Source: an uncultured Chloroflexia bacterium
GTDB taxonomy: Bacteria; Chloroflexota; Limnocylindria; Limnocylindrales; CSP1-4
Assembly: GCA_963713975.1 (NCBI GenBank)
Contig: OY970218.1
Span: 1,056,001-1,120,000 of the forward strand
Direction: 5' to 3'
DNA: 64,000 bases
Part shown: in pieces, positions 20,508 through 39,866 of the stretch
Layout of the letters: every line of letters begins with the position of its first letter
How positions within the stretch are numbered: the first letter of the stretch is position 1
Notes under the pieces: generated by a model
Told to the model about the DNA's origin: nothing
Seen by the model: only the letters and a program-made list of their open reading frames with translations
Database searches by the model: none
Translations under genes and position numbers: made by a program

Positions 20508-22802
20508 TTGGCCGTCCGTCTCCAGCTGAAGCTTGGCGCCGTCACGGAGCAGGACAGGCTCCCCGATTCCCCCGACACGATCGTGGTGGTGGAGCCGTCT
20601 GTCGGTTCCGTGGGGCGGACCAAGGGCAACCTGTACCTCCTCGTCACCTCCAGGGTGGCCGGCAACCGCGCGCGCGAGGCGACCAGGATGGTCGCGGACA
20701 CCGTCCGCAACGAGTACTACTACGATGAGTCGGCGGGCATCCGCCAGTGCCTCACCAAGGTGCTCGGGGTCGCCAACAAGCGGCTGACCCACCAGCGGGA
20801 CCGCTATGGGCTCGGCGCCCAGGCCGACGGCGGCGGGCCCATCGGCGTGGCGGCCGCCGTGGTCCGCGGACGCGAGCTCTACGTCGCCACGGTGGGTCCG
20901 GCGGAGGCCTACCTGATCCGCCAGGCCCGGCTGTCCACGCTGCCCGATCCCAACGGCGACCGCGGCCTGCCCGCCACCGATCTCGAGCCCGAGGTGTGGC
21001 GCGGCGAGCTGTCCGTGGGGGACTCGCTGTGCCTGGTCTCTTCGAACGTCGTGGCCGGGATCGGGACGGACGCCCTCAAGGACGCCCTGGTCACGCTCCA
21101 TCCGCAGTCGGCCATCGAGCACCTCCACGCGCGCTTCGTGGCTGCCGACGGCAAAGGCAGCGACGGCGCCTTCGCCTTCGAGGCGGCGGAGGTTGGCGCC
21201 ACGTTCAAGTCACGCACGCTGGTCTCGGTGCGCCCGGCCGAGCCGCTCGCCGGGGCCCCCGACCGGTCCCCGATCCCGTTGGCGGACTCCGTGACGGACG
21301 CGGCGGCTGCGATGGGGGCCGGGGCTGCCAGGGCCCGGAATGCCGCCGGGAGCAAGTTCCAGCGCGCCGTCTGGCGCGTCCAGGACCTCCTGCCACGACG
21401 CAAGCCCGGCCAGCGCAAGGTCACGGCCGCCACGCGGCGGATGGAGACCCAGCGACGGGCGGCGGTGGCGCTGCTGGCCTTCATCGCGGTCGCTGGGGCC
21501 CTCGTGCTCGGCGTCTACGCCGTCGGAGGCCAGAAGGGGCCCACGGAGGCGATCCGGTCCATGACGGCCGCCCAGCAGGCGTTCCAGGCGGCCGAGGAGG
21601 CCGTGGCGAGCGTGTCCGGGCCCGGGTTCGATCTCGTCACCGACGATCCCCGGAAGGCCCTCGAGCTCCTGACCCTCGCCTACGAGAGGCTCGATGCCGC
21701 CGGCGCCGCCGGGTACCCAGCCGCGGAGGTCCAGCTCCTGCGCGGGACGGTTGCCGACGGCCTCGACCGGCTGTACGGCGTGGTGCCCGTCCGATCGAGC
21801 ACGGTGTTCACGTTCCCGGACGACACCCCGGTCCAGCTCGCCGGCCTGGTGCGCGGGGACGACGGTGCGCCCTACGTGCTGGACACCGCGAGCAAGACCG
21901 TCTGGCGCATCGACCTCGCCGCGAAGACCGCGTCGCCGATCGCAGCTTCGGGCCAGAAGGTGCTGGCGGCGAAGGTCGCGGACCCCACCATCCTTGCGAG
22001 CGGAGGCCCGGATGTCCTCGTGCTCGACAGCAAGAACAACCTGTGGCGCTGGCGCCCCCTGCCCGCCAAGGGCAAGGGAACGCTGGTCAAGATCCGGGTC
22101 GAGGACTCCTCCTCGTGGGGTGACGACATCAGCGTGATGTCGACCTTCGTCGCCAACTACGACGCGGCGCTGTACAAGCTCTACATCGTCGACCCGTCGG
22201 AACAGAACATCATGGTCGTCTCACCGTCCAGCGACGGCTCGGGCTACCTGGGCAAGCCGACGGGCCGCCTGCCCACCGACCGGCCGGTGGATGGGATCAC
22301 CGATCTCCTGCTGGACGGTGACATCTTCGTGGCCGAGAACGGGCAGGTCGCGCGCGCCATCCCGGCCGCGGGGTGGACCGCCCAGCCGCCCGAGGACACC
22401 CAGGTCCGCCCGAATCCCAGCTACACCATCCTGTCGTCGCCAGACCGGCCGGATGGCCAGTCCAGCAAGCGCAACGGCCTGCTGTACGCCTTCGACCAGA
22501 CCAACCACCGGATCGTGGCGTTCAACAAGGCGGACGGCAAGTACGTCGAACAGTACGTGCTGGCGGATGGCGACCGCGGCTGGACTGACCTCCAGGACCT
22601 GGTCGTGCTGCCCGGAGCGGACGCGGAGGCTCCCTCGACCGCGTGGTGGGTCTCCAGCACCGGCCTCCACAGCGCGGTGCTCGTCGCCGCCGAGGGCCCC
22701 GCAGCGACACCCACGCCCACCGCCGCCGAACCGTCGGCCAGCCCCGCGAAGACCCCCAAGCCCGCGAAGACCCCCAAGCCCAAGAAGACCCCCAAGCCGT
22801 GA
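20508..22802 (+). CDS. Membrane protein: degenerate PP2C-like cytoplasmic domain, TM helix, extracellular beta-propeller-like domain
   Basis: AAVVRGRELYVATVGPAEAYLIR and GDSLCLVSSN follow PP2C motifs without the catalytic Asp residues. One TM, repeated YVLD/LVLD/YIVD/FVAE blades and a PAKTPK tail. TATAAT at 20427. Confidence 0.65.
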   Translation: MAVRLQLKLGAVTEQDRLPDSPDTIVVVEPSVGSVGRTKGNLYLLVTSRVAGNRAREATRMVADTVRNEYYYDESAGIRQCLTKVLGVANKRLTHQRDRYGLGAQADGGGPIGVAAAVVRGRELYVATVGPAEAYLIRQARLSTLPDPNGDRGLPATDLEPEVWRGELSVGDSLCLVSSNVVAGIGTDALKDALVTLHPQSAIEHLHARFVAADGKGSDGAFAFEAAEVGATFKSRTLVSVRPAEPLAGAPDRSPIPLADSVTDAAAAMGAGAARARNAAGSKFQRAVWRVQDLLPRRKPGQRKVTAATRRMETQRRAAVALLAFIAVAGALVLGVYAVGGQKGPTEAIRSMTAAQQAFQAAEEAVASVSGPGFDLVTDDPRKALELLTLAYERLDAAGAAGYPAAEVQLLRGTVADGLDRLYGVVPVRSSTVFTFPDDTPVQLAGLVRGDDGAPYVLDTASKTVWRIDLAAKTASPIAASGQKVLAAKVADPTILASGGPDVLVLDSKNNLWRWRPLPAKGKGTLVKIRVEDSSSWGDDISVMSTFVANYDAALYKLYIVDPSEQNIMVVSPSSDGSGYLGKPTGRLPTDRPVDGITDLLLDGDIFVAENGQVARAIPAAGWTAQPPEDTQVRPNPSYTILSSPDRPDGQSSKRNGLLYAFDQTNHRIVAFNKADGKYVEQYVLADGDRGWTDLQDLVVLPGADAEAPSTAWWVSSTGLHSAVLVAAEGPAATPTPTAAEPSASPAKTPKPAKTPKPKKTPKP

Positions 22803-24241: not shown

Positions 24242-25036
24242 TCAGGCGCCGAGGATCGGACGCCCGCGGCGCCTGGCCCGATCTGCGTTGGCCCACAGGC
24301 GAAGGCGCAGCAGCCAGAAGTCCTTCACCGCCCGCCAGATCACCGAGGGCTTCGCCCCCGTCGGGGACCCGGCGGTGCGGGCGTAGTGGGGCACGCCGAC
24401 CTCCGCGACGGATCGCCCCTGCTCCGTGACCTTGATCAGCAGCTCCGCAGAGAAGAACGCGCCCCCGGATTCGACCCGCACGCCGTCGAGTGCCTCGCGG
24501 CGAAAGAGCTTGCAGGCACAGTCCACGTCCCGGACCCGGAGGCCGAAGAAGATGCGATTGGCCAGCTTGTAGGTGCGGGCGTAGACCACGCGGATGATCG
24601 GATCTGCGCGCTTGATCCGGTAGCCGACCACGACATCCGGGTGGTCCGTCGCGTCCATCCGCTCCGTGAGGCGGCCGATGTCGGCGATCCGGAACTGGCG
24701 GTCGCCGTCCGTGAACGCGAGCAACTCGTAGCGGGATGCCTCGAACCCGGAGCGGAGCGCCCCGCCGTACCCCCGGTTGACCTCGTGGTGGACGACGCGC
24801 ACCACGTCGGGATGCTCGGCCGCGAGGCGATCCGCGATCTCGCGGGTGCGGTCACGAGAGCCGTCGTTGACGGCGATGATCTCGAACGTCTCGGCGAGGG
24901 ACGGCAGCGTCTCGAGCGCCTCCTGGACGAGCCCCTCGAGGTTCGCCTCCTCGTTGTGGGCCGGGAAGAAGTACGACAGGCGCGGCACCCGTGCGGGCGC
25001 CACGGCGTCCGTGGGATCTGCTGCGGGTGCGGTCAT
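24242..25036 (-). CDS. GT2 polyprenol-phosphate glycosyltransferase (DPM1/Ppm1-like)
   Basis: PAHNEE, VNDGSRD, NRGYGGA, TDGDRQF and DVDCACKLFRR motifs. Confidence 0.85.
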   Translation of the reverse strand: MTAPAADPTDAVAPARVPRLSYFFPAHNEEANLEGLVQEALETLPSLAETFEIIAVNDGSRDRTREIADRLAAEHPDVVRVVHHEVNRGYGGALRSGFEASRYELLAFTDGDRQFRIADIGRLTERMDATDHPDVVVGYRIKRADPIIRVVYARTYKLANRIFFGLRVRDVDCACKLFRREALDGVRVESGGAFFSAELLIKVTEQGRSVAEVGVPHYARTAGSPTGAKPSVIWRAVKDFWLLRLRLWANADRARRRGRPILGA

Positions 25037-26619
25037 TGCTGGTTCTCCTGGCGGCCCGTCACGCGGTACATGCCCTCGAGGCGATCGACGGGCTCGATCA
25101 CATAGCGTAGGCCCAGAGCCTGCACGTCGGAAGCTTGCGCACGGATGACGTACACGGGCCGACGTCCGAGGTTGGCCTCGATGACGTCCTCGATCGTACC
25201 GAGACCCTCATCGAGCAGTGTCCGATCGTCGAGGACGAGGACGTCCGGCCGGCGCCCCTCGATGAGCTGGCCGTACCAGAGCGGCGTCGAGTACGACCAC
25301 CACGACAGGACGACCGCATCGCGCTCGAAGGCGGCGAACGCGTCGTCCAGCCAGCCAGCCATCGCGGTATCGCCGGAGCGGTCCGCCTCCCGCCAGCGCG
25401 GACCGAGGGCGACGCCCGTGGGCACGAGGAGGACAAGTGCGATGGCCGCGACGGTGACAGCTCGCACGATCCGGCCGCGACGACCCCGGGCCGACCCGGG
25501 CGCCAGCCGGCTGACCGTCAGGTCGATGCCCGTCGCTGCCAGCACGGCGAGCCACGTCCAGGCGAAGAACAGCGGACCCAGGTAGTAGCGGTCGATCGCG
25601 GCGTTGTCGTAGGACATCGCGAACAGGCAGGTCAGGAGCACGGCGACGCCGGACAGCAGCGCGTAGGCCCGGAGCCGGACCGCGGTGGCGAGGAACCCAG
25701 CCGGCACCAGGAGGGCCAGCACCCCCAGCTGGTCCCCGGCGAGCCGGCCGAGGGCGACGACCTTTCCAGCTGGGTCGGCGAGCAGGCCGAGGAGGCCGCC
25801 CTGGAACTGGCTGGCGAGGACGACCTCCCAGAACCCACCCCACGTCTCGGGGTGCCCGTACACGATAGGTGAGCGGAACGGACCCGCCCGAAGCGGCAGC
25901 TCGAGGTACAGCACGGCCGCCACGCAGAGGCACGCGGCGAGCGCGGTCGCGACCAGCCGGGGCCGGCGCAGCGCCGCGGGATCCACGGCCAGCACGTAGA
26001 GGCCGACGGGGGGGATGAGCAGGATGGTGAGGCCGTGATTGGCCAGCGCGACCCCGAACACGGCGGCGGCCAGCACGAGTCCCCGATCCGCCCGGCGGGC
26101 GGCAATGGCGTCGCCCGGGGCCGCCCCGCGATCCGCAACCAGCGCGGCCCAGCGCAGAAGGGTCAGCACCGCCAGCGCCAGGAGCGCCAGGTGGAGCGCA
26201 TGGACGTCGGCCGCGGCGGAGATGTGCCACGCGACGGGTGCCAGGGCGATGCCGATGGCGGCCGCGACGGCCACCAGGAGTGGCACCTCGAGGCGCCGCA
26301 GCACGAGGACCCCGGTGCCGGCGGCGGTCGCCGCGAGGATCGCAGACAGCAGGTTCGCCCGGAACGCAGGGTCGCCGAGGGGCTGCAGGATCGCCGATGC
26401 CAGCCAGCCCAGCAGGACGAAGGCCGGGAACCCGGTGGGGTGCATCGTCCCCATCAGCGCCGGCACGGTCTGGGCCTCGGCGGTGTCCCACAGCGACACC
26501 CCCGGCAACAGCGTCGTTCGGTAGATGCCGAGCACGGCGAGCCCGGTGAGCAGTGCCGCCACCCAGGACCAGTCGCGGGACCGCCATCGGCCGGCGAGCG
26601 CGCTACCAGGCAAGGACAT
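25033..26619 (-). CDS. DUF2723/TMEM260-like GT-C membrane glycosyltransferase
   Basis: YRTTLLPGVSLWDTAEAQ, HPTGFP, AADVHAL, NHG and WYGQLIEGRRPDV motifs. Confidence 0.8.
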   Translation of the reverse strand: MSLPGSALAGRWRSRDWSWVAALLTGLAVLGIYRTTLLPGVSLWDTAEAQTVPALMGTMHPTGFPAFVLLGWLASAILQPLGDPAFRANLLSAILAATAAGTGVLVLRRLEVPLLVAVAAAIGIALAPVAWHISAAADVHALHLALLALAVLTLLRWAALVADRGAAPGDAIAARRADRGLVLAAAVFGVALANHGLTILLIPPVGLYVLAVDPAALRRPRLVATALAACLCVAAVLYLELPLRAGPFRSPIVYGHPETWGGFWEVVLASQFQGGLLGLLADPAGKVVALGRLAGDQLGVLALLVPAGFLATAVRLRAYALLSGVAVLLTCLFAMSYDNAAIDRYYLGPLFFAWTWLAVLAATGIDLTVSRLAPGSARGRRGRIVRAVTVAAIALVLLVPTGVALGPRWREADRSGDTAMAGWLDDAFAAFERDAVVLSWWSYSTPLWYGQLIEGRRPDVLVLDDRTLLDEGLGTIEDVIEANLGRRPVYVIRAQASDVQALGLRYVIEPVDRLEGMYRVTGRQENQQ

Positions 26620-28120
26620 GACCCCAGGTGACGCCCCACAGGTTGATCAGCCCGCCCGCCACCAGCAGCGCGATGGCGATCATTCGAGGCCGGCCGTCGG
26701 ACGGCCTGGCCGATCCCAGCGCGACCATCGGCAGGAGGAACGGCACGAAGTCGAGCGAGAACCGGTAGCCCCACTGCACCCAGCCCTGTGAGAAGTGCGC
26801 GAGGTTGAACGTCGCGACCAGCAGCACGGCCGCCGCGGTCGCGAGCCCCAGGCGGGAACGCCCGTGCCGCCGGAGCGCGAACAGTGCGAGCAGCAGGCCC
26901 GGTGCGCTGAGGAGGATGCTGGTGCCGATGTCCGAAGGGATGGCGAGCGGACAGGCGGCATCGAACAGCGAGCGCTGGGCGTCCGGCGCCGTGCACAGCA
27001 CGACGGGATCCAGGAAGCCGAGGCTGTCCGGCAGGCTGTCCGGCAGGACTCGGGGCAGCGCCGCCAGCATGATCCCCACGTTCTGCGGGATGTAGCGGAG
27101 GTCCTCCACGGACCAGTCGGCGTGGTAGCCGAGGGCTGAGTAGCCGGCGGCCTCGCGCTGGTACTGGTAGGCGTAGCCCGGGTGGAGCAGGGCACCCGTC
27201 GTCAGGTAGGTGTAGCCGAGCAGCGCCGCCACGGGCAGGATGCCGCCGGCCGCCGCGGACACGAGTCGGCGCAACGGCGTGCCGCCGCCGCCCACCAGCA
27301 CGAACCACGGCGCGGCGAAGATCAGCGGCAGCCTCGCGGTCACGGCAAGGCCGAGCAGGAAGCCCGCCAGGACCTGGGACCGGTCGAGTGGCCAGGCGGC
27401 CTCACGCAGCTGTGCCAGCCGGGAGGGCCCCCGGTTCGCGACCCCATCGCCGGCGGGCGCCTTATCGCCGGCCCCGCCCGCCTCTTCCGGATCCTCGCCC
27501 GCGTGATCGTCTGCGGCACCCGTGTCGTGGCGCAGGGTCACGCCCACGGCGAGGAAGGCGAGGTTGACCGCCACGAGGTGGGCCAGGTACCAGGTGCTGC
27601 CGACGGATGCCGCCCACCACCACACGGTGCCGGTTGCGAACAGGAACGTGACCAGTGCCCGGACGCTGGTCCGCAGGCGCAGGCCGCCGAGCATCCACCA
27701 CGCCAGGCCGACGCCGAGCGCCCCGAGCCCCACCGCGACCGCCTCCTGGTCCGTGGCGAGGCCCCAGATCGCCACGAACGGCATCAGCACGATGGCTGGG
27801 AGCGGCGGGAACGGGAGCAGCACGCGCCCGTCGGGCAGGCCATCCGGCCGGGCCAGCGGGTACACGTCCTGGAAGTAGTCGTTCCGGGGAAGATCGCCCC
27901 CGCCGGGCACCGGGTACGGGAACCAGGCGCGACCGTTGAGAAAGGCGTCCGCCTGCCACACGAAATGGTTGTAGACGTTCCAGTGGTCGAGGCTCGAGAC
28001 CCAGTACACGGCGAGCGCGAACAGCACGAGCAGGAGCCCGACGAGCCAGCTCGTCGGGTTCCTGGCGGCAGAGAGGGACTGGGGGGACCCTCCGGGGCCC
28101 TCGGCTATACTCGGCGGCAC
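26603..28120 (-). CDS. Putative GT-C-fold membrane glycosyltransferase (start uncertain)
   Basis: TM1 followed by YNHFVWQADAFLNG, PFPPLPA, multiple TMs and GWVQWGYRFSLDF. The ORF-track extension to 30076 overlaps the opposite-strand gene. Confidence 0.65.
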   Translation of the reverse strand: MPPSIAEGPGGSPQSLSAARNPTSWLVGLLLVLFALAVYWVSSLDHWNVYNHFVWQADAFLNGRAWFPYPVPGGGDLPRNDYFQDVYPLARPDGLPDGRVLLPFPPLPAIVLMPFVAIWGLATDQEAVAVGLGALGVGLAWWMLGGLRLRTSVRALVTFLFATGTVWWWAASVGSTWYLAHLVAVNLAFLAVGVTLRHDTGAADDHAGEDPEEAGGAGDKAPAGDGVANRGPSRLAQLREAAWPLDRSQVLAGFLLGLAVTARLPLIFAAPWFVLVGGGGTPLRRLVSAAAGGILPVAALLGYTYLTTGALLHPGYAYQYQREAAGYSALGYHADWSVEDLRYIPQNVGIMLAALPRVLPDSLPDSLGFLDPVVLCTAPDAQRSLFDAACPLAIPSDIGTSILLSAPGLLLALFALRRHGRSRLGLATAAAVLLVATFNLAHFSQGWVQWGYRFSLDFVPFLLPMVALGSARPSDGRPRMIAIALLVAGGLINLWGVTWGHVLAW

Positions 28121-28147
28121 CTTCAACGCTGCGTTAGGAGGCTCCCC

Positions 28148-31100
28148 GTGACCGCTCTGGGTTCGGGTGCGCCCGCCCGGGAGTCGACGACGGACGAAGC
28201 CCCCCGGCGAGGCGTCGGCCCGCAGATCGCGCTGATCATGCTGATCGGCGTGGTCTTCCGCTTGATTCTGGCATACGGCATCGATGGACTCCGCGGATCC
28301 GGGTTCGGCGCGGACCTTGGCCTCTTCCGGTACTGGGCCGACACACTTGCCACTCACGGGCCATGGGGCTTCTACGCGAACGCGTCCTTCGCGGACTACA
28401 CGCCCGGCTACCTGTACGCCCTGTGGCCGGTCGGGGTCGTCGGCCAGTTCGTCGGCGGTGTCGGCGACCTGATCAAGATCCCGGCAATCATCACCGACGT
28501 GGTGCTCGGGTACATCGTGTGCTCGATGGCGCTGGACCTCGGCGTGACGCGCAGGCGCGCCCTGATCGCGGCCGCCGTCGTGATCCTCAACCCCATCAGC
28601 TGGTTCGACTCGGTGATCTGGGGCCAGGTGGACAGCTTCGGGACGGTCTTCCTGCTGCTGGGTGTGCGCGAGTTGTGGCGCGGCCGGGGCGAGCGGGCTG
28701 CCGTCCTCGCCGTGATCGCTGCACTGGTCAAGCCGCAGCTGGCGATCCTCGTGCCCATCGTCGCCGTCGTTGTGATCCGCCGGGCCCTGTGGCCACGGGG
28801 AGGATTCGGCGACGAGCCGGCGCCGCGACCGGCTGGCACGGGCTGGGAGCGCCGCACGACCGGATGGATCCGGATCCTGACCACGGCCGCCGCCGGCTTC
28901 CTGACGGCGGTGGCGATGTCCGCTCCGTTCGGGTTGTCCGTGGTCGGCGTGTCCGCCAGCGCGCCGTATCTCGACTCGTCTCTGCTGCGACTCGTCTTCA
29001 GCACCGCCGCCGGGTACCCCTACCTGACGGTCAACGCCTACAACTGGTGGGCCCTGTTCCCGGTCGACGGGCTGAGCGTGGCCTCGGCAGGTGGCGCCCT
29101 GTGGATGCCCGACTCGCCGGTCCCCGATGCGACGGTATGGGGAGCCATCGGGCCCGTTCCCGCCGCGCTGGTGGGGGCCACGATCCTGCTGACCGTGGCG
29201 GCGCTGGTTGCGTGGGTGGTGGCGCGCCGGCCGGACCGGCTCACGATCCTGGTGGGCGTCACGGTCCTCGCCGTGGCGTTCTTCGCCGCCCCAACGCGCG
29301 TCCATGAGCGCTACCTCTTCCCGTTCTTCGGCCTCGCGGGAATCCTGTTCGCCGTCTCCTTTCGCTGGAGGATCGCCTACGTCGTTGCCGGCGTCGCCAC
29401 GTTCCTCAACATGTACGTGGTCCTCACCACGCTCTACGGCGACAACCCGCAGGTGTCGGACTGGCTGGGGATCGGCGGTGCCATCAGGTCCTCGGCGGGC
29501 GTGACCCTGGTGGCGCTGCTGCACACCGCGGCGTTCGGATGGGGACTGCTCCAGCTCCGGCCACGGGCCCGGTCGACGCTCGCGATCGAGCTCGACGCGG
29601 CGCGGATCGAGGAGGGTGGCGACGGCCACCAGGTTCACGCCGGGGGAGCCGCCGGTCAGGTATCCGCGCCCGCGCCACCGGCCGTCGCGGCGGTTACGGG
29701 CGTGCGATCGGCCGCTGCCGGCCCGGCCCGGCCCGGATCTGCACCGGCCCGCCGCCTGCTCCCCGCCTGGTATGACCGGCCGTCCTGGACGGAGATCGGC
29801 CCCATCGCCTGGCTCAGGGTGCGCGTCGCCGAGACGCCATGGCGTCCCGATCGGTCCCGATCCCTCGCGACGGAGGGTCGCGGCCGCCTGGACCGGCTGG
29901 ACCTGTGGATTCTGATCGTGCTGGTCGTCGGAACGATGGGCCTCCGCACGTACCGCCTGGAGGAGCCCTCCAGGATGCACTTCGACGAGGTCTACCATGC
30001 CCGTACGGCCACGGAGTTCCTCCAGGACTGGCGCTACGGCATTTCCCACTCCATCTATGAGTGGACCCACCCGCATCTCGCCAAGTACTCAATGGCGCTC
30101 GGGATCGTGGCCTTCGCGGGCGCGGACGTCGAGGCCACCAGCGACCTCGGCGTCCCGGTGCGTGCGGCTGCGATCGAGCCAAGGCGCGAGGACCTGGCCG
30201 GTGGTACGGATCGAGCCGGCGACCGCGCATGGGTGGTGACGGGCTCGGAGCTCATCGCCTATGACCTGCAGACGCGGGCCGTCGTGGCTCGCTGGGCGCT
30301 GCCGGGGGCGAGCGCGGTCGCCTTCGACGAGGTGGGCCCTCGCCTGTTGGTCGGCACCGACGCGGGTGAGGTCCTCGCTCTGGACACGAGCGCGCTGGAC
30401 GCCCTTCCCGCGGCGACCCCGGAGTCCCAGACGATCGACCCGCTGCCGGTGGCCATGCTCGAGGGTCCCGTGATCGGCCTCGCGGGCTACAAGGATGGGT
30501 CCCACGTCGCCGCGCTGCTCCAGGACGGACAGGTGGCCGTCCTGGACGCCGACACCGGAGAGGTCACCGGAAGCGCCACGGTTGACGGCGCCGTGGACCT
30601 CGCGGCCGTCGACGATGTCTCAGCGCTCGTGGCCACGCCCTCAGCGGTCGCGGACGTGCCGGCTGTCGCGGCGGAGCTGGCCGCACAGCTGGGTGGCGAC
30701 GAGGCGTCCTACGAGGCGCAGCTGGCCGCCGCGGAGGCCGACACGGTCGTTCTCGACGCGCCGGTCACCGCCGACAATCGGGACGCGCTCCAGGCTGCGA
30801 TCGACGACGGGCGCCTCGCCGGCCTGGCGATCGAACCCGTTCCCACGATGGCCGTGGCTGGTTCCGGCGGCGTCTCGTTCCTCACCACACGGGGCACGAC
30901 CTCCGCCACCGTGGACCTGGAGCACGGCGCGGCCGGGCTGGCGCTGGTCACGAACATCGATGACGGGGCCCAGCTCTACGTGACCACGAAGGCCCCGGGC
31001 ACGGGCGACCCGGAGATCGCCGTGATCGCGGTCTCGGGCGACGCGGCCGCGAACGGTCCCGAGCGGACCGACAGCTTCCCGCTGCCGGCACCGGGGACCA

Positions 31101-33520
31101 GGGTCGTGTACGACACGGCGTCCGAGCTGGTCGAGGTGCAGGGCGTCACCCCGGACGGCACGGGCTCCACCGTCTACGTGATCGAGCCGCACGGCAAGAG
31201 CGTGTTCGCCGATCACAAGCTCCCGTTCGTGCCGGTCGCCCTCGCCATCGACCACAACGGGGACTATCCGATCGACAGCCGTGGATCCCTGCTCGCATTT
31301 GCCTCCGGAGGGGAGTCGGCGTCGATGGACGTGGGGTCCTACCAGATGGCCTGGCGCCTGCCCGGCGCGCTGCTCGGCGCGCTCACGGTGGGCGTGCTGT
31401 TCCTCCTGGGTCGCGTGCTGTTCCGGCGACGCACCGTGGGCGTGCTGGTCGGGCTGTTCGCGCTGCTGGACGGGATGCTCTTCGTCCAGAGCCGGATCGC
31501 GATGAACGACGTCTACACGGGCTTCTTCATCCTCGCCGCCTACCTGCTGTTCGCCCTGGTGTGGCTCGAGCCCCAACGGTCCAAGCGCGCCTTCTGGGTT
31601 GTCATGCCCGTCATGGGCGTGCTCCTCGGCCTGGCGCTTGCATCGAAGTGGGTGGCCGCCTACGCCATCGGGGCGTTGGGCATCCTGGTGCTGATCCGCT
31701 CGGCGCTGGGGCGGATCCTGCTGATCGCCGGCCTGGTGGGGATCACCGGGGTGCTGGGGTGGATGGCGCTGGCGGTTCCGACGGGCAGTGGCGGTGCAGG
31801 CAACCTGCCGTTCGTCCTGATCATGATCGCGATCACCCTGGCGACAGTTGCGATCACCGTCTACCACCCCGTCGCCTGGTCGGACGACGAGGTCCGCTTC
31901 GCCGTCGGCGCCCCAGCCATGCTGGGGATGCTGGTCGTGCTCGCCGGGATTGCCGCGGGCAAGGCGGAATCGAGCATCGTGCTGGGACCCGTCCAGGTGA
32001 CCCCGCTCGAGGTCGGCTTCGGCCTGGTCATCGTGGGCCTGCTGGCCTATGCGGCCTTCGGCCTGGGTGGGCGCCTGGGAGTAGGCCCGATGGCGCCCTC
32101 GCCGGATCCCGACATGCTGGCCGGCGGGCCGCCACCGGCGTCGCCCGCCCCCGAGGGCTGGGTGCGTCTGGGCTGGCACCTGGGGATCCCGGCCGCCTGG
32201 CTGGCCGCATCGCTGCTCGTGATCCCGCTGGCCGTGTACGTGGTCTCGTACCTGCCGTGGGCCGCCATCGAGGGTCATCAGCTCGTGGCGGGCTGGCCGG
32301 TCGGACATACCGGCCAGGCGCTCACCGACCTCACCGGCGAGATGTACCGCTACCACAACAACCTGACCGCGGCCCACGCCGCGAGCTCGCCGTGGTGGGC
32401 GTGGCCCCTCAACCTCAAGCCCGTCTGGTTCTACCAGGGCGGGTTCGCGGGTTCCACGGCGGCCGCGATCTACGACGCCGGGAACATGGTGATCTGGTGG
32501 ATGGGGATCCCGGCCATGGTGTTCGTCGCCTACCAGGCATTCAAGCGGCGGAGCCTCGCGCTCGCGCTGATCCTGATCGCCTTCCTCGCCCAGTGGATCT
32601 CGTGGGCCCGGATCGACCGGGCCGCCTTCCAGTACCACTACTACACGAGCCTGCCGTTCGTGATCCTGGCCCTCGGCTACTTCGTTGCCGAGGTATGGCA
32701 CGGAGCCTCGCCGCGGACCTGGCTCCTGGCCCGGGCCGCCGCGGCCGTGGCGATCATGGGCCCGGTGCTGCTGTGGCTGCTGCGCTACCCGCTGTGCGCG
32801 ATCGCCGAGGTCGAGTCCGTCAACGCGGGGTCGCAGGCCTGCAACGGCAACCCGGGGAATCTCGTCGTCACGCCCGCCACCGGCCTCATGGTGATCGTGG
32901 CCATCGTGACCGTGATCGTGGTCACCTGGCAGCTGATCGACCTGGGTCGTCCGCGACCCGACGGCAGGCCCACCAGGGGACGGGACCTGCTGCCGCTGGG
33001 TCTGACCTCCGTGGTGGCGGGCACCGCCCTGGCGATCGCACGCCTGCTCCCGGACGGCGACCCGCTGTTCACGTTCAACGGGATCGTGCCCGAGATCATC
33101 GCCCTGATCGTGGCAGTACCCCTGGGGCTGGTGGCGATCCAGGTCCTCACCGCACGGGACGCCCGCCGGTTCACGGCCGGGCTGCTGGCGGCCGTGGTCG
33201 CCTGGTTCGCGATCCTGTACCCGAACCTCTCGGCCCTGGTCATGCCGTCCGCGGTCGTCAACGCCTACCAGGGTCTGTTGCCCACGTACCTGTACGCGTT
33301 CCAGTTCGGGGTGAACACGGTGGACCGAAGCGAGGCGATCTCGTTCGCCGACCCGAGGTTTGCGATCCTGATGGTGTTCCTTGTCATCGCCTGCGGTGTG
33401 GTGGCCTACGCCGCCTGGGCGTGGCGCCAGGCGAGCGCTGACGCTCCGGATCCCATGCCGCCGGACTCAAGTGCCGATGGACCGGCAGCCCAAGCAGGCG
33501 CCGAGCCGGGCGTTTCCTGA
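28148..33520 (+). CDS. ~1790 aa fusion: N-terminal GT-C module plus protein O-mannosyltransferase (PMT) module with a large inserted extracytoplasmic domain
   Basis: AGGAGG RBS before GTG 28148. Module 1: ADLGLFRYW, DYTPGYLY, WGQVDS, KPQ, VHERY. Module 2: FDEVYH, HPHLAK, WRLPGA, SRIAMND, SKW, YHNNL...H...SPWWAWP, GN, FQYHY. Confidence 0.85.
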   Translation: MTALGSGAPARESTTDEAPRRGVGPQIALIMLIGVVFRLILAYGIDGLRGSGFGADLGLFRYWADTLATHGPWGFYANASFADYTPGYLYALWPVGVVGQFVGGVGDLIKIPAIITDVVLGYIVCSMALDLGVTRRRALIAAAVVILNPISWFDSVIWGQVDSFGTVFLLLGVRELWRGRGERAAVLAVIAALVKPQLAILVPIVAVVVIRRALWPRGGFGDEPAPRPAGTGWERRTTGWIRILTTAAAGFLTAVAMSAPFGLSVVGVSASAPYLDSSLLRLVFSTAAGYPYLTVNAYNWWALFPVDGLSVASAGGALWMPDSPVPDATVWGAIGPVPAALVGATILLTVAALVAWVVARRPDRLTILVGVTVLAVAFFAAPTRVHERYLFPFFGLAGILFAVSFRWRIAYVVAGVATFLNMYVVLTTLYGDNPQVSDWLGIGGAIRSSAGVTLVALLHTAAFGWGLLQLRPRARSTLAIELDAARIEEGGDGHQVHAGGAAGQVSAPAPPAVAAVTGVRSAAAGPARPGSAPARRLLPAWYDRPSWTEIGPIAWLRVRVAETPWRPDRSRSLATEGRGRLDRLDLWILIVLVVGTMGLRTYRLEEPSRMHFDEVYHARTATEFLQDWRYGISHSIYEWTHPHLAKYSMALGIVAFAGADVEATSDLGVPVRAAAIEPRREDLAGGTDRAGDRAWVVTGSELIAYDLQTRAVVARWALPGASAVAFDEVGPRLLVGTDAGEVLALDTSALDALPAATPESQTIDPLPVAMLEGPVIGLAGYKDGSHVAALLQDGQVAVLDADTGEVTGSATVDGAVDLAAVDDVSALVATPSAVADVPAVAAELAAQLGGDEASYEAQLAAAEADTVVLDAPVTADNRDALQAAIDDGRLAGLAIEPVPTMAVAGSGGVSFLTTRGTTSATVDLEHGAAGLALVTNIDDGAQLYVTTKAPGTGDPEIAVIAVSGDAAANGPERTDSFPLPAPGTRVVYDTASELVEVQGVTPDGTGSTVYVIEPHGKSVFADHKLPFVPVALAIDHNGDYPIDSRGSLLAFASGGESASMDVGSYQMAWRLPGALLGALTVGVLFLLGRVLFRRRTVGVLVGLFALLDGMLFVQSRIAMNDVYTGFFILAAYLLFALVWLEPQRSKRAFWVVMPVMGVLLGLALASKWVAAYAIGALGILVLIRSALGRILLIAGLVGITGVLGWMALAVPTGSGGAGNLPFVLIMIAITLATVAITVYHPVAWSDDEVRFAVGAPAMLGMLVVLAGIAAGKAESSIVLGPVQVTPLEVGFGLVIVGLLAYAAFGLGGRLGVGPMAPSPDPDMLAGGPPPASPAPEGWVRLGWHLGIPAAWLAASLLVIPLAVYVVSYLPWAAIEGHQLVAGWPVGHTGQALTDLTGEMYRYHNNLTAAHAASSPWWAWPLNLKPVWFYQGGFAGSTAAAIYDAGNMVIWWMGIPAMVFVAYQAFKRRSLALALILIAFLAQWISWARIDRAAFQYHYYTSLPFVILALGYFVAEVWHGASPRTWLLARAAAAVAIMGPVLLWLLRYPLCAIAEVESVNAGSQACNGNPGNLVVTPATGLMVIVAIVTVIVVTWQLIDLGRPRPDGRPTRGRDLLPLGLTSVVAGTALAIARLLPDGDPLFTFNGIVPEIIALIVAVPLGLVAIQVLTARDARRFTAGLLAAVVAWFAILYPNLSALVMPSAVVNAYQGLLPTYLYAFQFGVNTVDRSEAISFADPRFAILMVFLVIACGVVAYAAWAWRQASADAPDPMPPDSSADGPAAQAGAEPGVS

Positions 33521-33566: not shown

Positions 33567-34802
33567 TCAGTCCGGCTCCACCTCGGCACCCGGCGGCAGG
33601 ACGAGCCGGTCCGAGCGAGCGGTGCTCGCCAACCCGGGCCGCGGAGAGGGCGGGATCGCAGCAGTGAAGTGCGGCGGCAGCGAGCCCGTGGCCGCAAGCC
33701 GACGGATCACGAACCCGTAGTAGTCGTCCACCTTTGCGGTCACTCGCGGCCAGCTGAACTCCTCCGCACGACGCATGCCGGAGGCGGACATCTCGGCCGC
33801 AAGCTCACGGTCCCTGAGCAGCCGGCCGATCGAGGCGGCGAGCTCCTTGTGGTCCTTGGGAGGCACGAGGAGGGCCTCGCGCCCGCGGCGGACGACCCCC
33901 TTGTAGCCGTGGATGTCCGAGGCCACGATCGGAGCGCCGGCGGCCATGGCCTCCAGGAGCACGATCCCGAACGACTCGCGGCCGGTCGCCGGGCTCGCGT
34001 AGACGTCGGCGGTCCGGAACAGCTGGGCCTTCTCGTCGTCCGAGACGCGACCGAGGAACTCGACGCCCTGGAGGCGTCGTGTCGCCACGTAGCGGCGGGC
34101 CTCGCGCTCCTGGGGGCCGCCGCCGACCAGCAGCAACCGGGCATCGACGCCCGCTCGGCGCAGCAACCGGTAGCCCTTGAGCATGTCGAGGACGCCCTTG
34201 CGGGGCTCGAAGCGGCCCACGAAGAGCACGTTTTGTCTGCCGTCCTGCCAGCGTGCCACCGGCACGGCCCGCTGGTAGCGCTCGACGTCCACTCCGTTGG
34301 GGATGACCTTGTAGTCGCCGGGGAAGTAGCGGTCGATGAAGTGGCGGGCGGCGGCCGAAACTGCGATCCGGCCGTGCAGGCGGTCCGCGTACCCGCGCAG
34401 GGCCCGTGACCCGAACTCGTAGGCCGGCGACCAGCCCCCATAGGCGTGGAAGGTGCCGACGTTCACGCTCTGAGACTCCCGCAGGATGACGAGCGACAGG
34501 AACGGCACGAATGGCTCGTGGAAGTGCAGCACGTCGAAGCGCTCCCGGTCGAGGAGCTCCCTGGCCTGGGACACGTACCGCGGCGAGAGCGTCACCGTCC
34601 CGACGGAGCCATTGGCGGGCATCGAGAAGCCCTTGCCCAGCCGGATGACGTCGCCATCGGACGAGCGCTGCAGACCGTGTGACGAGGTCAGGATCCGGAC
34701 GTCGTGGCCACGCTGGCGCAGGTTCTCGTACAGGAATCGGACGTGCTGCGTCACACCGCCCGGCAGCGGGTACACGTACGGCGAGACGAGGCCGATCTTC
34801 AC
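33567..34802 (-). CDS. pimA: GT4 phosphatidyl-myo-inositol alpha-mannosyltransferase-like protein
   Basis: KIGLVSPY...PGGV, PANGSV, HFHEP, IPNGVD, RFEPRKG and ESFGIVLLEAMAAG motifs; operon context. Confidence 0.8.
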   Translation of the reverse strand: MKIGLVSPYVYPLPGGVTQHVRFLYENLRQRGHDVRILTSSHGLQRSSDGDVIRLGKGFSMPANGSVGTVTLSPRYVSQARELLDRERFDVLHFHEPFVPFLSLVILRESQSVNVGTFHAYGGWSPAYEFGSRALRGYADRLHGRIAVSAAARHFIDRYFPGDYKVIPNGVDVERYQRAVPVARWQDGRQNVLFVGRFEPRKGVLDMLKGYRLLRRAGVDARLLLVGGGPQEREARRYVATRRLQGVEFLGRVSDDEKAQLFRTADVYASPATGRESFGIVLLEAMAAGAPIVASDIHGYKGVVRRGREALLVPPKDHKELAASIGRLLRDRELAAEMSASGMRRAEEFSWPRVTAKVDDYYGFVIRRLAATGSLPPHFTAAIPPSPRPGLASTARSDRLVLPPGAEVEPD

Positions 34803-35626
34803 CGCTCGTCCGTCCGTCCGAAGGTCGGGTCGTAGCGCGCTGGGCGCAGCGTCCCGCCCGGGTAGCCGAGATCCCGCCCGGTTCCGTCCCGGCGTACCCG
34901 GCCGCCGATCGTGGCCCGCCAACCCCGCGAGTACTTCGCGAGCTGCCCGCGGTACACGCCCAACTGCGTGAGCGACCCGTGGAACGAGCCCTGGTGGCGC
35001 GTGGTCCCATCCGCGATCGCTGCCCGGTAGTCCTCCGGGCCCCGGCCCGGGAAGGTGGTCCAGGCGGCGCCCACGGCGGCCGTCGCGTGTGCGTCGCTGT
35101 TGCCAACCTGGGGCAGTCGGTGTTCCTCGGCAAACCGCACGACCGCCGCGTGGCCGTACTTCCCGAGCGCCGTGGGGTTGAAGGTCTCGATCGCATCGGG
35201 GCGCGACGCAGGATCGTCGCGGGCCAGGAGGCGCCGGAGCGTGAAGCCCTGGGCGCACAGCGGATATGGGACCATCGGGTGGGCGGGGATGGCGAGGCCG
35301 CCCTGGTCGTGGACCGCCTCGATCGTCCAGCGGAGGCTCCTGAGGGCCGGCACGGGCTGCTCCAGGAACAGGGCGAGCAGGTGGCCCTCCCGGGAGCTGA
35401 TCTCCTCCCCAACCACGACGTGGACGCCGAGGCCGAGATCGCCGGCCATCTGGCGGGCCGCCAGCGCGGCATCGATCCGGTCGTGGTCCGCGATGGCGAC
35501 GATGTCCAGGAACCCATCGGCCTCTACCCGGTCGAGGATCTCACGTACCGACGACGTCCCGTCTGAGGCAAGGGTGTGGACGTGCATGTCGGCCCGGCCG
35601 AGGCGGACGAGCGGATCAAGGCTCAT
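34799..35626 (-). CDS. PHP-domain metal-dependent phosphoesterase
   Basis: DMHVHT..SDG, ADHD, GEE, GH, AHP and GNSDAH motifs. Confidence 0.85.
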   Translation of the reverse strand: MSLDPLVRLGRADMHVHTLASDGTSSVREILDRVEADGFLDIVAIADHDRIDAALAARQMAGDLGLGVHVVVGEEISSREGHLLALFLEQPVPALRSLRWTIEAVHDQGGLAIPAHPMVPYPLCAQGFTLRRLLARDDPASRPDAIETFNPTALGKYGHAAVVRFAEEHRLPQVGNSDAHATAAVGAAWTTFPGRGPEDYRAAIADGTTRHQGSFHGSLTQLGVYRGQLAKYSRGWRATIGGRVRRDGTGRDLGYPGGTLRPARYDPTFGRTDER

Positions 35627-36660
35627 GCCCTTGCCTCGAGGCCGCCGGCAGGGACGGCGAGGTCCGGCCAGATGGGGTGGAACGCGCCCCACCACTGCTC
35701 AGGCCCGTCCGCGAGGATCGTCTCGAAGGCGGTCGCGATGGCGGCGGTCAGGGCGATCGTCCGCTCCCGGCGCGTGCCCTCGACGGGGACGGGCACGGCG
35801 ATGAGCTTGCCGATGCACCGACCGTCGCGGGTCCGGCGGGCAGAGCCCGCGTACACGGGCACTCCCGCCTCGATAGCCAGCAGGGCCGGACCGGGCGACA
35901 TCGGCGCCAGGTGGCCGAAGAATGGCGTGGGGATGCCGGTCCGGGTGATGTCGCGGTCGTTGACCATGCCCACCGACTCACCTCTCCGCAGGGCCGCAAG
36001 CATGGTCCTCCGCGCGTTGGCCAGCGGGATGACCCGCACGCCGACGCGTCCCCGCGATGTCTCGAACCAGCGCTGGACCACGGGATCGGCGACGGTCTCC
36101 ATGGGTGCCGTCACCGGGTGCCCCACGAGGTTCGAGATGTAGACGACCGGCAGCTCGATCGCGCCGTAGTGCAGGCCGACGAGGACGATCGGCCGGCCCG
36201 ACGCAAGGGCCTCGCGGATCTCGCCGGGCGTCTCCTGGTGAAGCCGGGCCAGCGCGGTCGCCAGGTCGTAGGAATCGGCCCGGGCGACTTCGAGGTAGTA
36301 GCGGACGGCGTGCCGGAAGGAGGCACGCACGAGCCGCTCGAGGGCGGCGGGGTCCGTGGCCGCTCGGCGGGCGAGTCCGGTGCCACGTCCCTGGGCCGCC
36401 AGCCCCTCGCACACCCGGCGCAGGTTGTTGCGGGCCTGGGAGGCACGGTCGGGAGCGAGGCGATACCAGAGCTCGCCGATGCTGTCGGCCGCGGCAAGCA
36501 GCGGCCGCTCGGGTAGGACGGCGACGATCCGGGTGCCCGCCACGAGGATCGTCCCGCGCAGCGAGCGCCGGATGGGCGCCCCGGGCCCGGAACCGGCACC
36601 GGGCTCGTCACCACGACCCGCACGAGGCGCAACCGAACCGGGCCCGCCACCCGGTGTCAC
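35623..36660 (-). CDS. PatA/LpxL-family acyltransferase (copy 2)
   Basis: HYGAIE, NDRD, FFG and PEQWW..FHPIW motifs; GTGA-coupled to copy 1. Confidence 0.8.
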   Translation of the reverse strand: MTPGGGPGSVAPRAGRGDEPGAGSGPGAPIRRSLRGTILVAGTRIVAVLPERPLLAAADSIGELWYRLAPDRASQARNNLRRVCEGLAAQGRGTGLARRAATDPAALERLVRASFRHAVRYYLEVARADSYDLATALARLHQETPGEIREALASGRPIVLVGLHYGAIELPVVYISNLVGHPVTAPMETVADPVVQRWFETSRGRVGVRVIPLANARRTMLAALRRGESVGMVNDRDITRTGIPTPFFGHLAPMSPGPALLAIEAGVPVYAGSARRTRDGRCIGKLIAVPVPVEGTRRERTIALTAAIATAFETILADGPEQWWGAFHPIWPDLAVPAGGLEARA

Positions 36661-37673
36661 CGTCCCGCGGCCTCGTCCGGCGTGGATGGCGCATCGGACC
36701 CGGCCAGCATGGCTGCAGCGCGTGCTGCGAGCTCTGCGCCCTCGGCCGGATCGCTCGGCCACATAGGCTTGAAGCTGTACCACTGGGCCGGCGCGGCCCG
36801 GACCGTCGTCTCCAGCGCGTCCGCGATCCGCTGGGTCGCTCGCTGCAGGTCCGCCGGGCTCGAGGACGGAACCGTGAACTCCCCGTGTGCCTCGATGCGG
36901 AAGCGCCCACTCGGGGTGCGGCGGATGGCGAGCGGCGCGATGATGGCGCCCGTCTTGGCGGCCAGCGAGGCGGGCCCGGCCGGCAGGGTCGTCCAGGCGT
37001 CGAAGAACCGCACCGGGATGCCGTCATTCCGGTAGCCCCAGTCCACGAGCAGGGCCAGGATCTCGTTGCGGCGCAGCACCCCGAACAGCTCCCGCAGGTT
37101 GCGCCACGGGATGAGGGTCGCGCCCCAGGCCTCGCGCTGCCGGCGGAGGATCTCGAACAGCTCGGGAAACGTGGAGTCGTCCGCGACCACGTTGGTCGGA
37201 TAGCCTCGGGTGGCGATGGCGGCGCCCACGGCCTCGTTGTTGCCCACGTGGCCGACGACCACGATCATCGCCCGGCCCGAGGCGCGCCAGGCCTCGATGA
37301 TCCGGTCGATCCCGTCTCCCTCGATGCCGTCCGCCAGCTCGTCGAGGGGCCGGGACGGGAGCCGCATGAGCTCCACCATGTAGCGCGCGTACTCCCGGTA
37401 GGCGCGAAGCGCCATCCGGTGAACCCGCGGGTGGGACGGCGGGAGCCCCAGCACGTGGCCGAAGTTGGCGCTGGAGAATCGGCGCTTGTTGGGCCATAGG
37501 AGGTAGCTCAGCTGCGAGGCTCCGCCGATCACCGCCCGCGAGAGCACGGGCGGCACAACGGCGAGAGCGGCGGACATCGACCGGTAGCCGATGACCGCCG
37601 CCTTCTCGACGACTCGCGGGGGGGTTGACTCGAGGCGCCGGTGTGGCGCCTCGAGCTTCCGGTTGGAGGTCAC
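36657..37673 (-). CDS. PatA/LpxL-family acyltransferase (copy 1)
   Basis: [27 protein letters not shown] and PAQWY.FKPMW motifs. Confidence 0.82.
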
Positions 37674-38872
37674 TTGGTGGCGGGGGCCTTCGTCCTTGAT
37701 GCGGTCGCGAGCGCCTTGGAGTCCTTCTTGGACTCCTCGTTGCCCTCGAGCGTCTCGTTGTCGTCGCCACGGATGAAGGCCTCGACCCGCTCCCGTGCCA
37801 CGTCGTCGTGGAGCTGGAGCGGCGGGCTCTTCATGAAGTAGCTGGACGGTGCCACGAGGGTACCCTTCAGGCCGCGATCGAGCCCGATCTTAAGACACCG
37901 GACGGCGTCGATGATGACGCCGGCGCTGTTGGGGCTGTCCCAGACCTCGAGCTTGAGCTCGGCCTTGAGCGGCACGTCACCGAAGGTGGTGCCCTCCATG
38001 ACGATGTAGCAGTACTTGCGGTCCTGGAGCCACGGCACGTAGTCGGACGGGCCGACGTGGACGTTGCCCGGCTCCAGCTCGTAATCGAGCATGGACGTGA
38101 CAGCGTTCGTCTTGGAGATCTTCTTGGACTCCAGCCGCTCGCGCTCGAGCATGTTCATGAAGTCCGTGTTGCCGCCGAAGTTCAGCTGGTAGGTGCGATC
38201 GAGGCGGACACCCCGGTCCATGAACAGGCGGGTCAGCACGCGGTGGCTGATCGTCGCGCCGACCTGGCTCTTGATGTCGTCGCCGATGATCGGGAGGCCC
38301 ATGTCGGCGAAGCGGCGCTGCCAGTAGGGCTCGCGGCCGATGAACACCGGGATGGCGTTCACAAAGCCGACGCCGGCCTGGAGGGCCTGCTCCGCGTACC
38401 ACTTGGTCGCCTCCTCGCTCCCGACCGGGAGGTAGGAGACCATGACGTCGACCTGGCGATCCTTGAGGATGCCGACCACGTCTGCCGTCGGGCCGGGGGC
38501 CTTCTCGATGACCTGCGAGAGGTACTTGCCCAGACCGTCGTGGGTCATGCCGCGGTCCACGGTCACGCCCATGTGGGGCACGTCCATGAACTTGATCGTG
38601 TTGTTCTGGCCCGCGAAGATCGCCTCGGAGATGTCCTTGCCGACCTTCTCCTTGTCGATGTCGAAGGCCGCCACGAACTCCACCGAGTTGATGTGGTAGT
38701 CGCCCAGCTGGACGTGCATCAGGCCCGGGATGGTGTCGGTGGTCTTCGCGTTCTCGTAGTAGTAGCGGCCCTGGATGAGGCTGCTGGCGCAGTTGCCGAC
38801 GCCGACGACGGCGACGCGGATCTTGCGATCCGCCTTGGCGGGGACGGTCTCGTTGGTCACGTGGGTCTCCAT
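37670..38872 (-). CDS. ino1: myo-inositol-1-phosphate synthase
   Basis: [36 protein letters not shown] and WDSPNSAG motifs. Confidence 0.95.
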
Positions 38873-38880
38873 GTGTCGCG

Positions 38881-39507: not shown

Positions 39508-39866
39508 GACGACGCTCCCTGCCCGATCGGGGCTGCCTCCAGCCCGAGGGCCCTGGCCTGGCGGGTGGCGAACATCGCGAAAGCCTCCGGCTCGATGGTG
39601 TGGATCGTCTCCCGGCCGTTCCGCTGTGCGGAGACCAGCCCGACCTCGCGCAGCTTGGAGAGGTGCCAGGAGACGAGGGGTTGCGACAAGCCGACACGGT
39701 CGATGAGCTCGGTGACCGTGGCCGGCCCCTCGGCCAGGACGCGGCAGATCCTGAGCCGGTTGACGTCCGCCAGCACCTTGTGGAAGCGGCGCAGCTCGCG
39801 GAGGTCGTCGGGCTGGTCGACGACCGCGGCAAACGTGCTCCGGATCCGCGCGGGAGAGGGGGACAC
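39504..39866 (-). CDS. ArsR-family transcriptional regulator heading the PI/PIM operon (start approximate)
   Basis: KVLADVNRLRI and SQPLVSWHLSKLREVGLV motifs; GTGA overlap with pgsA. Confidence 0.8.
   Translation of the reverse strand: MSPSPARIRSTFAAVVDQPDDLRELRRFHKVLADVNRLRICRVLAEGPATVTELIDRVGLSQPLVSWHLSKLREVGLVSAQRNGRETIHTIEPEAFAMFATRQARALGLEAAPIGQGASS

Follow-up and report, generated by a model that had tools for sequence, protein, structure and literature searches.

A Chloroflexota membrane protein joins a protein O-mannosyltransferase, a second GT-C module and a seven-bladed β-propeller in one chain

Can one bacterial gene encode two membrane-embedded glycosyltransferase units together with a large soluble domain, and, if so, what would the product do? 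The question is raised by a long gene in a 64,000-nucleotide (nt) stretch of contig OY970218.1 (assembly GCA_963713975.1) from an uncultured Chloroflexia bacterium, a stretch that is referred to here as the window and whose own numbering is used for all its features. The gene occupies positions 28148..33520 of the + strand, running from a GTG start to a stop codon at 33518-33520, and encodes a fusion protein of 1790 amino acids (aa). This product is a membrane protein that joins a protein O-mannosyltransferase (PMT), a second glycosyltransferase module of the GT-C fold that resembles ALG6 and PimE, and a seven-bladed β-propeller. When considered together with its relatives and its neighbours, it is probably a single-chain form of the Pmt complex recently proposed for mycobacteria, that is, a protein O-mannosyltransferase assembly working at the outer face of the cytoplasmic membrane.

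A preliminary description of the window, made from the nucleotide letters, had claimed that all these parts belong to a single gene, and this is borne out by one open frame in the window, a conserved start and the presence of a single open reading frame (ORF) in most relatives. The stop-free frame of the + strand spans 27182-33520, and the 1790-residue product is obtained from the GTG at 28148. This start is common to orthologues, one of which (L002) has the same first residues and two others of which (P0072 and P0245) begin alike. The GC content at third codon positions (GC3) is coding-like in the frame of the fusion gene only from about 28200 on; upstream of about 28100 it marks the - strand as coding, and the DNA there is occupied by another gene, designated gene X.

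The N-terminal part, module 1 (28148..29602, + strand, aa 1-485), is a GT-C glycosyltransferase module of the ALG6/ALG3/PIG-M/PimE type. It is polytopic and has the conserved N-terminal transmembrane (TM) module by which the GT-C fold is recognized, and in structure comparison its best match is ALG6 (score 25.9, rmsd 3.2, 388 aa aligned), followed by ALG3 (24.9), glycosylphosphatidylinositol (GPI) mannosyltransferase I (23.5), PIG-U (20.9), ArnT (19.4) and PimE (18.6). The earlier assignment of this module to GT-C thus agrees with a fold closest to ALG6, ALG3, GPI mannosyltransferase I and PimE, and the motifs on which it had been based were all located: DYTPGY at aa 83, WGQVDS at aa 158, KPQ at aa 195 and HERY at aa 386. 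Invariance, computed here and below over 33 sequences from three families of the class Limnocylindria, coincides with these motifs, as D83, Y84, P86 and Y88, W158, G159, Q160 and D162, K195 and Q197, and P382, T383, R384, H386, E387, R388 and Y389 are the same in 33/33. By sequence profiles, module 1 is far harder to place. Scanned alone (aa 1-501), it gives no Pfam match at E<=10; no match to GT87 (PF09594) was obtained for it in a scan of its own genome; and its profile finds a single chance-level match among PDB sequences (E 0.25). Seven of the eight relatives that were scanned match GT87 at E<=0.1 (12.9-28.4 bits, cut-off 25), four of them above the cut-off, one of the eight matches Alg6_Alg8 (PF03155) below its cut-off (22.4 vs 25), and some match PIG-U, Alg6_Alg8 or Mannosyl_trans4 near or under the respective cut-offs. 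Compared with the two families of known structure, PimE (GT87; 9dm5/9dm7) and ALG6 (GT57; 6snh), the module of the window passes the threshold of neither. Module 1 therefore has a GT-C fold, yet it can be placed in none of the curated families.

Module 1 is followed by a linker rich in Ala, Pro and Arg (29603..29893, + strand, aa 486-582), which has no invariant position and whose length varies among the three sampled families of the class, f1, f2 and f3: it measures 84-118 aa in the window's genus, 36-56 aa in f3 and 23-30 aa in f2, a family of small genomes (1.0-1.4 Mb). No Pfam match at E<=10 was obtained when the segment aa 502-661 was scanned alone.

As had been proposed, the second half of the protein is a PMT. 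Its DE motif is intact, and the assignment stands on Pfam matches, alignment with fungal PMTs and invariant residues. The module opens with its first TM helix and the start of external loop 1 (29894..30097, + strand, aa 583-650), where the DE motif F612 D613 E614 lies at nt 29981-29989 and is followed by T640 H641 P642. The preliminary description had recognized the FDEVYH motif, present at aa 612, and had placed it at about 29890; this position is the start of the first TM helix, and the motif itself begins at nt 29981. Similarly, the loop motif was found at aa 641, where it reads HPHLAK instead of the HPPLxK that had been announced. The membrane core follows after the insert described below (31349..32812, + strand, aa 1068-1555) and opens with AWRLPG at aa 1068 (nt 31349), in accordance with the GWR-type motif expected past the insert. 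It contains matches to Pfam PMT (PF02366, aa 1058-1184, 49.2 bits vs a cut-off of 22.7), limited to profile positions 75-199, and to PMT_4TMC (PF16192, aa 1393-1549, 46.5 bits vs a cut-off of 32.4). Because the insert splits the domain, the first third of the PMT profile is parted from the rest. The fusion protein is the sole one in its genome to match PF02366 above the cut-off. Extra TM blocks had also been suspected, and the core indeed counts 11-13 hydrophobic segments, the extra ones being at aa 1190-1310. Downstream lies a C-terminal extension (32813..33517, + strand, aa 1556-1790) with five hydrophobic segments and no family match; it comprises 225-264 aa and five segments in the window's genus, and 120-146 aa with two to three segments in f2 and f3.

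When the C-terminal 1226 aa are searched against PDB sequences, the fungal enzymes Pmt4, Pmt1 and again Pmt4 are retrieved at E 3e-4 to 2e-3, with F612 D613 E614 aligned to the FDEV of CtPmt4 and ScPmt1. Invariant positions are found in loop 1 (F612, D613, E614, Y616 and H617; T640, H641 and P642) as well as in the core (R1116, N1120, D1121, K1167, W1168, H1410, the block S1414-P1420, R1491, F1494, Y1496 and H1497), all in 33/33, and R1491-A-A-F1494 lies within the PMT_4TMC match. In the PMT of Mycobacterium tuberculosis (MtPMT), activity is reported to need the Asp of the DE motif in loop 1 (D74) and an Rx2Y motif in a later loop (R441/Y444), the latter being equated with R649-F652 of yeast Pmt1 (PMC12331936). 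By motif, D613/E614 and R1491-x2-F1494 correspond to D74 and Rx2Y of MtPMT as described in that source (PMC12331936).

The soluble domain is a seven-bladed β-propeller inserted in external loop 1 (30098..31348, + strand, aa 651-1067, 417 aa). In the alignment with fungal Pmt1, the FDEV/HPxLAK stretch and the next membrane helix correspond to residues 53-104 and 137 onward, and here they lie about 420 residues apart; an insert of some 390-415 aa is thereby confirmed in external loop 1. It enters the chain 35-40 residues past D613, within this same outer loop. As had been anticipated for an acidic, propeller-like insert of some 400 aa in the first external loop, the predicted structure is a confident β-propeller with seven blades by fold match, and the domain holds 61 Asp and Glu against 18 Arg and Lys in its 417 residues. 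Scanned alone, it retrieves only sub-threshold propeller families from Pfam. Within the propeller, a helical sub-insert of about 65 aa (30635..30826, + strand, about aa 830-893; alignment columns 200-263, with helices at model residues 198-247) is found in the window's genus and is absent from f2. Only four positions of the propeller are invariant, and identity to f2 amounts to 20-25% in the propeller, 37-41% in module 1, 59-66% in the N-terminal part of the PMT module (PMT-N) and 43-46% in the PMT core, by which measure the propeller is the fastest-evolving structured part of the protein.

A search of representatives with PMT-N plus propeller gave 2432 matches at E<=1e-3, and a few of these seem to be without module 1, such as P0258 (1439 aa, on a 228-kb contig), P0269, P0266 and P0299. 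Stand-alone propeller proteins were considered as well and rejected, the 24 short matches obtained with the propeller query among proteins of <984 aa being read as pieces of the same fusion family: the 11 that have a precomputed Pfam domain all carry PMT-family domains, two have named sources, which are Limnocylindrales or Chloroflexota bins, and the rest are unannotated. Among proteins of that size, the query thus brought up no propeller protein independent of the fusion.

The joining of these parts is kept in all three sampled families, each of which has the fusion as a single ORF, as the proposal of a conserved fusion had predicted. A search of 5.8 billion proteins gave 1204 matches; among the 120 matches listed, 115 are 1743-1916 aa long, and the full-length relatives listed are 52-84% identical, with sources that name Chloroflexota or Candidatus Limnocylindrales. 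Matches are present in 40/41 related genomes, the exception being a genome that is 72% complete. In the window's genus, a single ORF free of stops spans the gene at 17/20 loci (its own included); a contig end truncates one of the others, and the frame is broken at the remaining two. In f2, 12/12 loci are shorter single ORFs of 1401-1477 aa; and in f3, module 1, the insert and the PMT share one ORF at 4/4 loci that were inspected directly. When 301 genomes of the phylum were scanned with a profile, 85 gave a match. Within the class, 31/32 other genomes have their best match in an open frame of 1441 aa or more, the 32nd (G074) having a 902-aa frame with homology that goes on in another frame; for matches outside the class, the surrounding open frames measure 111-1032 aa.

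Some further loci show related arrangements. An f3 genome (G098) has a second, paralogous full fusion (L149, 1004-5644, + strand, 1546 aa), which is 33% identical to the window protein over 1314 aligned columns (query residues 5-1265). Another Chloroflexota family (G297) has a 935-aa stop-to-stop frame with a module-1-like part and a PMT, without a propeller-sized insert (L135, 1444-4248, + strand). In G335, a 993-aa stop-to-stop frame carries ALG6-like and GT87 parts (L133, 1266-4244, - strand), and a 1032-aa frame at L134 (1186-4281, + strand) has GT87 followed by a GFO/IDH/MocA oxidoreductase and may be two genes in one frame. The double GT-C frames and the paralogous fusion suggest that two GT-C units in one chain are a recurrent arrangement and that what is specific to the class is the propeller insertion. 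In a quick tree, built from module 1 only (28 rows), the in-class copies and the out-of-class copy of G179 (f25) fall on one side with a weak support of 75, and three stand-alone copies of module 1 (529-559 aa) nest within the fused ones.

What, then, does such a protein resemble? The closest parallel in kind is a mycobacterial complex proposed in a preprint on the basis of AlphaFold3 prediction and affinity-purification mass spectrometry pull-down in M. smegmatis (10.64898/2026.07.15.738315). It comprises Pmt (Rv1002c/ML0192c, GT39), the GT87-like Rv0051/ML2687c, Rv3212/ML0810c and two copies of the DivIVA-like Rv1209/ML1065. In that account, Rv0051 is a non-catalytic dimer partner compared with Pmt2, and Rv3212 forms an eight-bladed periplasmic propeller over the Pmt active site, where it is proposed to act as a gatekeeper (10.64898/2026.07.15.738315). 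The fusion protein has counterparts by kind of part: a GT39 unit with the DE motif, a GT-C module of the GT87/ALG6 type and an extracytoplasmic propeller. It differs from the complex, as the preprint describes it, in being one polypeptide, with the propeller inserted in loop 1 instead of being a separate membrane-anchored protein, in having seven blades where the other has eight, and in a module 1 whose candidate catalytic residues are invariant, residues that Rv0051 is said to lack. No DivIVA-like part turned up here, no search having been aimed at one.

Other known systems share fewer features. One sentence of the same preprint mentions Paenibacillus GT39 enzymes fused to a GT87 enzyme (V9WAU2; 10.64898/2026.07.15.738315); as in the window, a GT87-type unit and a PMT would form one chain, and that sentence mentions no propeller. 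The Pmt1-Pmt2 heterodimer (6p25) and the Pmt4 homodimers (9i5k, 9e61) of eukaryotes share the GT39 fold, the DE motif in loop 1 and the presence of two GT-C units, and they also have an outer, lumenal soluble domain thought to aid acceptor recognition. However, sequence similarity to them is weak, at the E values given above, their partner is a second GT39 instead of an ALG6/PimE-like module, and their soluble domain is a MIR β-trefoil in loop 5 instead of a propeller in loop 1.

On this basis, the following mechanism can be proposed. The GT39 PMT module would be the initiating enzyme, in which D613 of external loop 1 would serve the transfer of a hexose, most likely mannose, to Ser or Thr of exported proteins. 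The sugar would come from a polyprenyl-phosphate donor, the product of the adjacent GT2 synthase, and the acceptors could plausibly be the Pro/Thr/Ser (P/T/S)-rich linkers of membrane-anchored proteins. The propeller, tethered in the same loop, may cap the catalytic face and admit or select acceptor polypeptides, a part also proposed for Rv3212 and for the MIR domains of eukaryotic PMTs. Module 1, joined via the cytoplasmic linker, would complete a pseudo-heterodimer as its second GT-C unit, in the way of Rv0051 or Pmt2. Mannose as the sugar, proteins as the acceptors, the propeller as a cap, the packing of the modules and the activity of module 1 are what we infer in this scheme. The idea of the preliminary description, in which one chain initiates and elongates the glycan and the insert selects substrates, is plausible.

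Should this reading as a single-chain assembly be correct, the protein would give the first sign of O-mannosylation of proteins in Chloroflexota as far as literature searches go; these returned neither a description of the fusion protein nor a paper on this modification in the phylum. A natural fusion is, moreover, independent evolutionary evidence that the parts work together, and the mycobacterial complex so far rests on one preprint with structure predictions, a pull-down and correlated mutant phenotypes (10.64898/2026.07.15.738315). That every sampled family of an unrelated class, three in all, has the same three kinds of part covalently linked supports the architecture of the mycobacterial complex and suggests that a PMT, a second GT-C unit and a capping domain constitute a general design. 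In practical terms, the single chain fixes a 1:1:1 stoichiometry and is thereby a simpler object for electron cryo-microscopy and enzymology.

Several points weigh against a single-chain counterpart of the mycobacterial assembly. The bacterial Pmt equivalog model NF058602 scores 44.5 bits, with a cut-off of 800; the score is so far below this cut-off that the protein has to be seen as a divergent member of the PMT family and not as an equivalog of the curated actinobacterial enzyme. For module 1 of the window there is no GT87 Pfam match, and its orthologues barely reach the cut-off. The insertion point is the sole ground for placing the propeller over the active site. The mycobacterial propeller is eight-bladed and the GT87-like partner is presented as lacking catalytic residues, so that the parts are analogous at best. 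In addition, the gene of the window's genus adjoins an operon like that for phosphatidylinositol mannosides (PIM), with which a role in glycolipid synthesis fits equally well. A three-chain complex prediction with module 1 (aa 25-468) and the PMT segments aa 583-650 and aa 1068-1555, the propeller being omitted, is neutral on this reading, with a score of 0.00 where the mark is 0.32.

Among other explanations, the one that survives best is that module 1 is a catalytically dead structural partner, which stabilises the PMT or helps to recruit substrates, with only one sugar being added. It is a possible, though on present evidence unlikely, account, and it draws on the preprint that describes Rv0051 as lacking catalytic residues and likens it to Pmt2 (10.64898/2026.07.15.738315), as well as on the position of module 1 under the Pfam thresholds for GT87 and ALG6. 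Yet D83, Y84, K195, Q197, H386, E387 and R388 are kept in all 33 sequences, in a protein whose linker has no such position and whose propeller has only four, and these residues are of the same kinds as those whose mutation abolishes or reduces the activity of PimE (PMC12041525). According to that work, PimE cannot do without the Asp that tips its first juxtamembrane helix or a Lys that binds phosphate, and mutation of nearby His residues lowers activity (PMC12041525). D58, K195 and H322 of PimE can be set beside D83, K195/Q197 and H386 of module 1 as like kinds of residue, a match by kind.

Because the candidate catalytic residues are invariant, the scales tip slightly toward module 1 being active too, for instance by adding to the first sugar in the manner of PimE. 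The substrate of PimE is Ac1PIM4, and the enzyme has also been reported to extend O-mannose on proteins (PMC12331936; 10.64898/2026.09.29.755281), and a PimE-like protein is listed among the interactors of MtPMT (10.64898/2026.09.29.755281). A bolder and rather doubtful extension would have both GT-C sites at work, the propeller-gated PMT adding the first mannose to P/T/S-rich linkers and module 1 adding the next sugar before release, in which case the Rv0051-type partner of mycobacteria might have decayed from an elongating enzyme that was active in an ancestor. With its candidate catalytic residues retained, module 1 makes the question of enzyme or scaffold directly testable.

A different role altogether would be the building or decoration of a lipid-anchored glycan, such as an inositol glycolipid resembling PIM or lipomannan, or of a wall polysaccharide, with both GT-C modules adding sugars from polyprenyl-phosphate carriers and the propeller holding the glycan. 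In favour of this role, the fusion gene is, in the window's genus, convergent with an inositol-lipid operon (33567-39897, - strand) that encodes a GT4 glycosyltransferase, a PHP-family metallohydrolase/phosphatase, two proteins like PIM acyltransferases, an inositol-3-phosphate synthase (match at 3e-167) and a phosphatidylinositol phosphate synthase; PIM acyltransferase is the best NCBIfam match of the two acyltransferase-like proteins. The layout is kept in 3/3 genus loci, inositol-3-phosphate synthase occurs in 5/5 f2/f3 genomes tested and lies 10-20 kb away from the fusion in three of these, and inositol glycolipids are the substrates of two fold relatives of module 1, PimE and GPI mannosyltransferase I. 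Nevertheless, the operon is not adjacent to the fusion gene in f2, characterised enzymes of the PMT family act on proteins in the studies at hand (PMC12331936; 10.64898/2026.07.15.738315), the PMT-specific DE and Rx2F motifs are invariant, and four other proteins of the genome exceed the GT87 cut-off and could serve a glycolipid pathway. A glycolipid role is compatible with the gene content but improbable for this protein.

The neighbour that speaks for the PMT assembly lies on the other side of the gene. A divergent operon on the - strand consists of gene X as its first member (26603..28060, about 485 aa, start approximate), a TMEM260-like GT-C gene (25033..26619, PF11028 1e-16) and a GT2 gene for a protein of 264 aa resembling polyprenyl-phosphate sugar synthases (24242..25036, Pfam Glycos_transf_2 1.2e-27), the best solved relatives of which are ArnC and the Pyrococcus dolichol-P-mannose synthase 5mlz. 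The whole gene layout around the fusion is kept in 3/3 genus loci. At 3/3 f2 loci, only ORF 20508, a BFN-domain gene and the GT2 gene stay beside the fusion, with GT2 directly adjacent and divergent, and GT2 is the only tested neighbour that adjoins the fusion gene in both f1 and f2. Because GT2 stays directly adjacent at the f2 loci, where the inositol operon does not, the robust link is that with the polyprenyl-phosphate sugar synthase, the expected donor supplier of both GT-C modules.

The best 80 further loci with module 1 motifs from a scan of a genome collection, all from close Chloroflexota relatives, comprise 58 with one ORF, 11 that are open at a contig end and 11 that continue in another frame. 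The possibility that faulty sequencing or assembly has merged two genes into an artificial long ORF can be dismissed: the 11 loci continuing in another frame belong mostly to long-read metagenome bins and the same is seen in G017, G018, G001, G012 and G074, but 58 independent loci are uninterrupted, 11 more stay open to the contig end, and every f2 and f3 locus counted above is a single ORF. Relatives that always carry two separate genes, the outcome that would have spoken for such a merger according to the preliminary description, did not appear, as two genes separated by a stop, a spacer and a new start were seen at none of the loci.

Candidate acceptors for the proposed PMT assembly are encoded in the window itself. 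A sortase (44283-45032, - strand) and an AhpC/TSA-type redoxin (45047-45817, + strand) both have an N-terminal membrane anchor directly followed by a P/T/S-rich linker of 60-75 aa; in 30-aa windows, P/T/S reaches up to 83% in the sortase (rich stretch aa 34-94) and up to 80% in the redoxin (rich stretch aa 43-116). Five proteins with such linkers had been listed: the sortase at 44283, the redoxin, given as 45101, and ORF 3939-5189 withstand inspection, and the signal in those at 10414 and 20508 is weak or only terminal. To call proteins of this type acceptors is a guess.

As for the remaining neighbours, gene X encodes a polytopic membrane protein with a GC3 of 0.89 in its frame, has no Pfam or NCBIfam match and yields only unnamed families in the Atlas. 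It is conserved in 3/3 genus loci examined and, together with the TMEM260-like gene, is kept in the genus and missing from f2. A relationship of gene X with module 1 was considered and rejected, with a profile comparison probability of 6%. The inositol-lipid operon is complete and resembles the actinobacterial phosphatidylinositol/PIM pathway, yet it lies in a Chloroflexota genome. ORF 20508-22802 (+ strand) encodes 764 aa with a Pro/Thr/Lys-rich tail, for which neither Pfam nor NCBIfam gives a match; in the two families examined, it keeps its place upstream of the GT2 synthase and the BFN-domain gene.

Elsewhere in the window, the chromosomal origin region is found at 12424-20051, with jag/khpB-like, yidC and rnpA on the - strand and dnaA, dnaN and recF on the + strand. 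A P-type ATPase with a C-terminal hemerythrin domain is encoded at 6563-8908 (- strand). Finally, genes for NADH:quinone oxidoreductase subunits lie in a run at 48322-63293 (- strand), and within this run a 908-aa gene combines 2Fe-2S, 4Fe-4S and pyridine-nucleotide-disulphide oxidoreductase domains.

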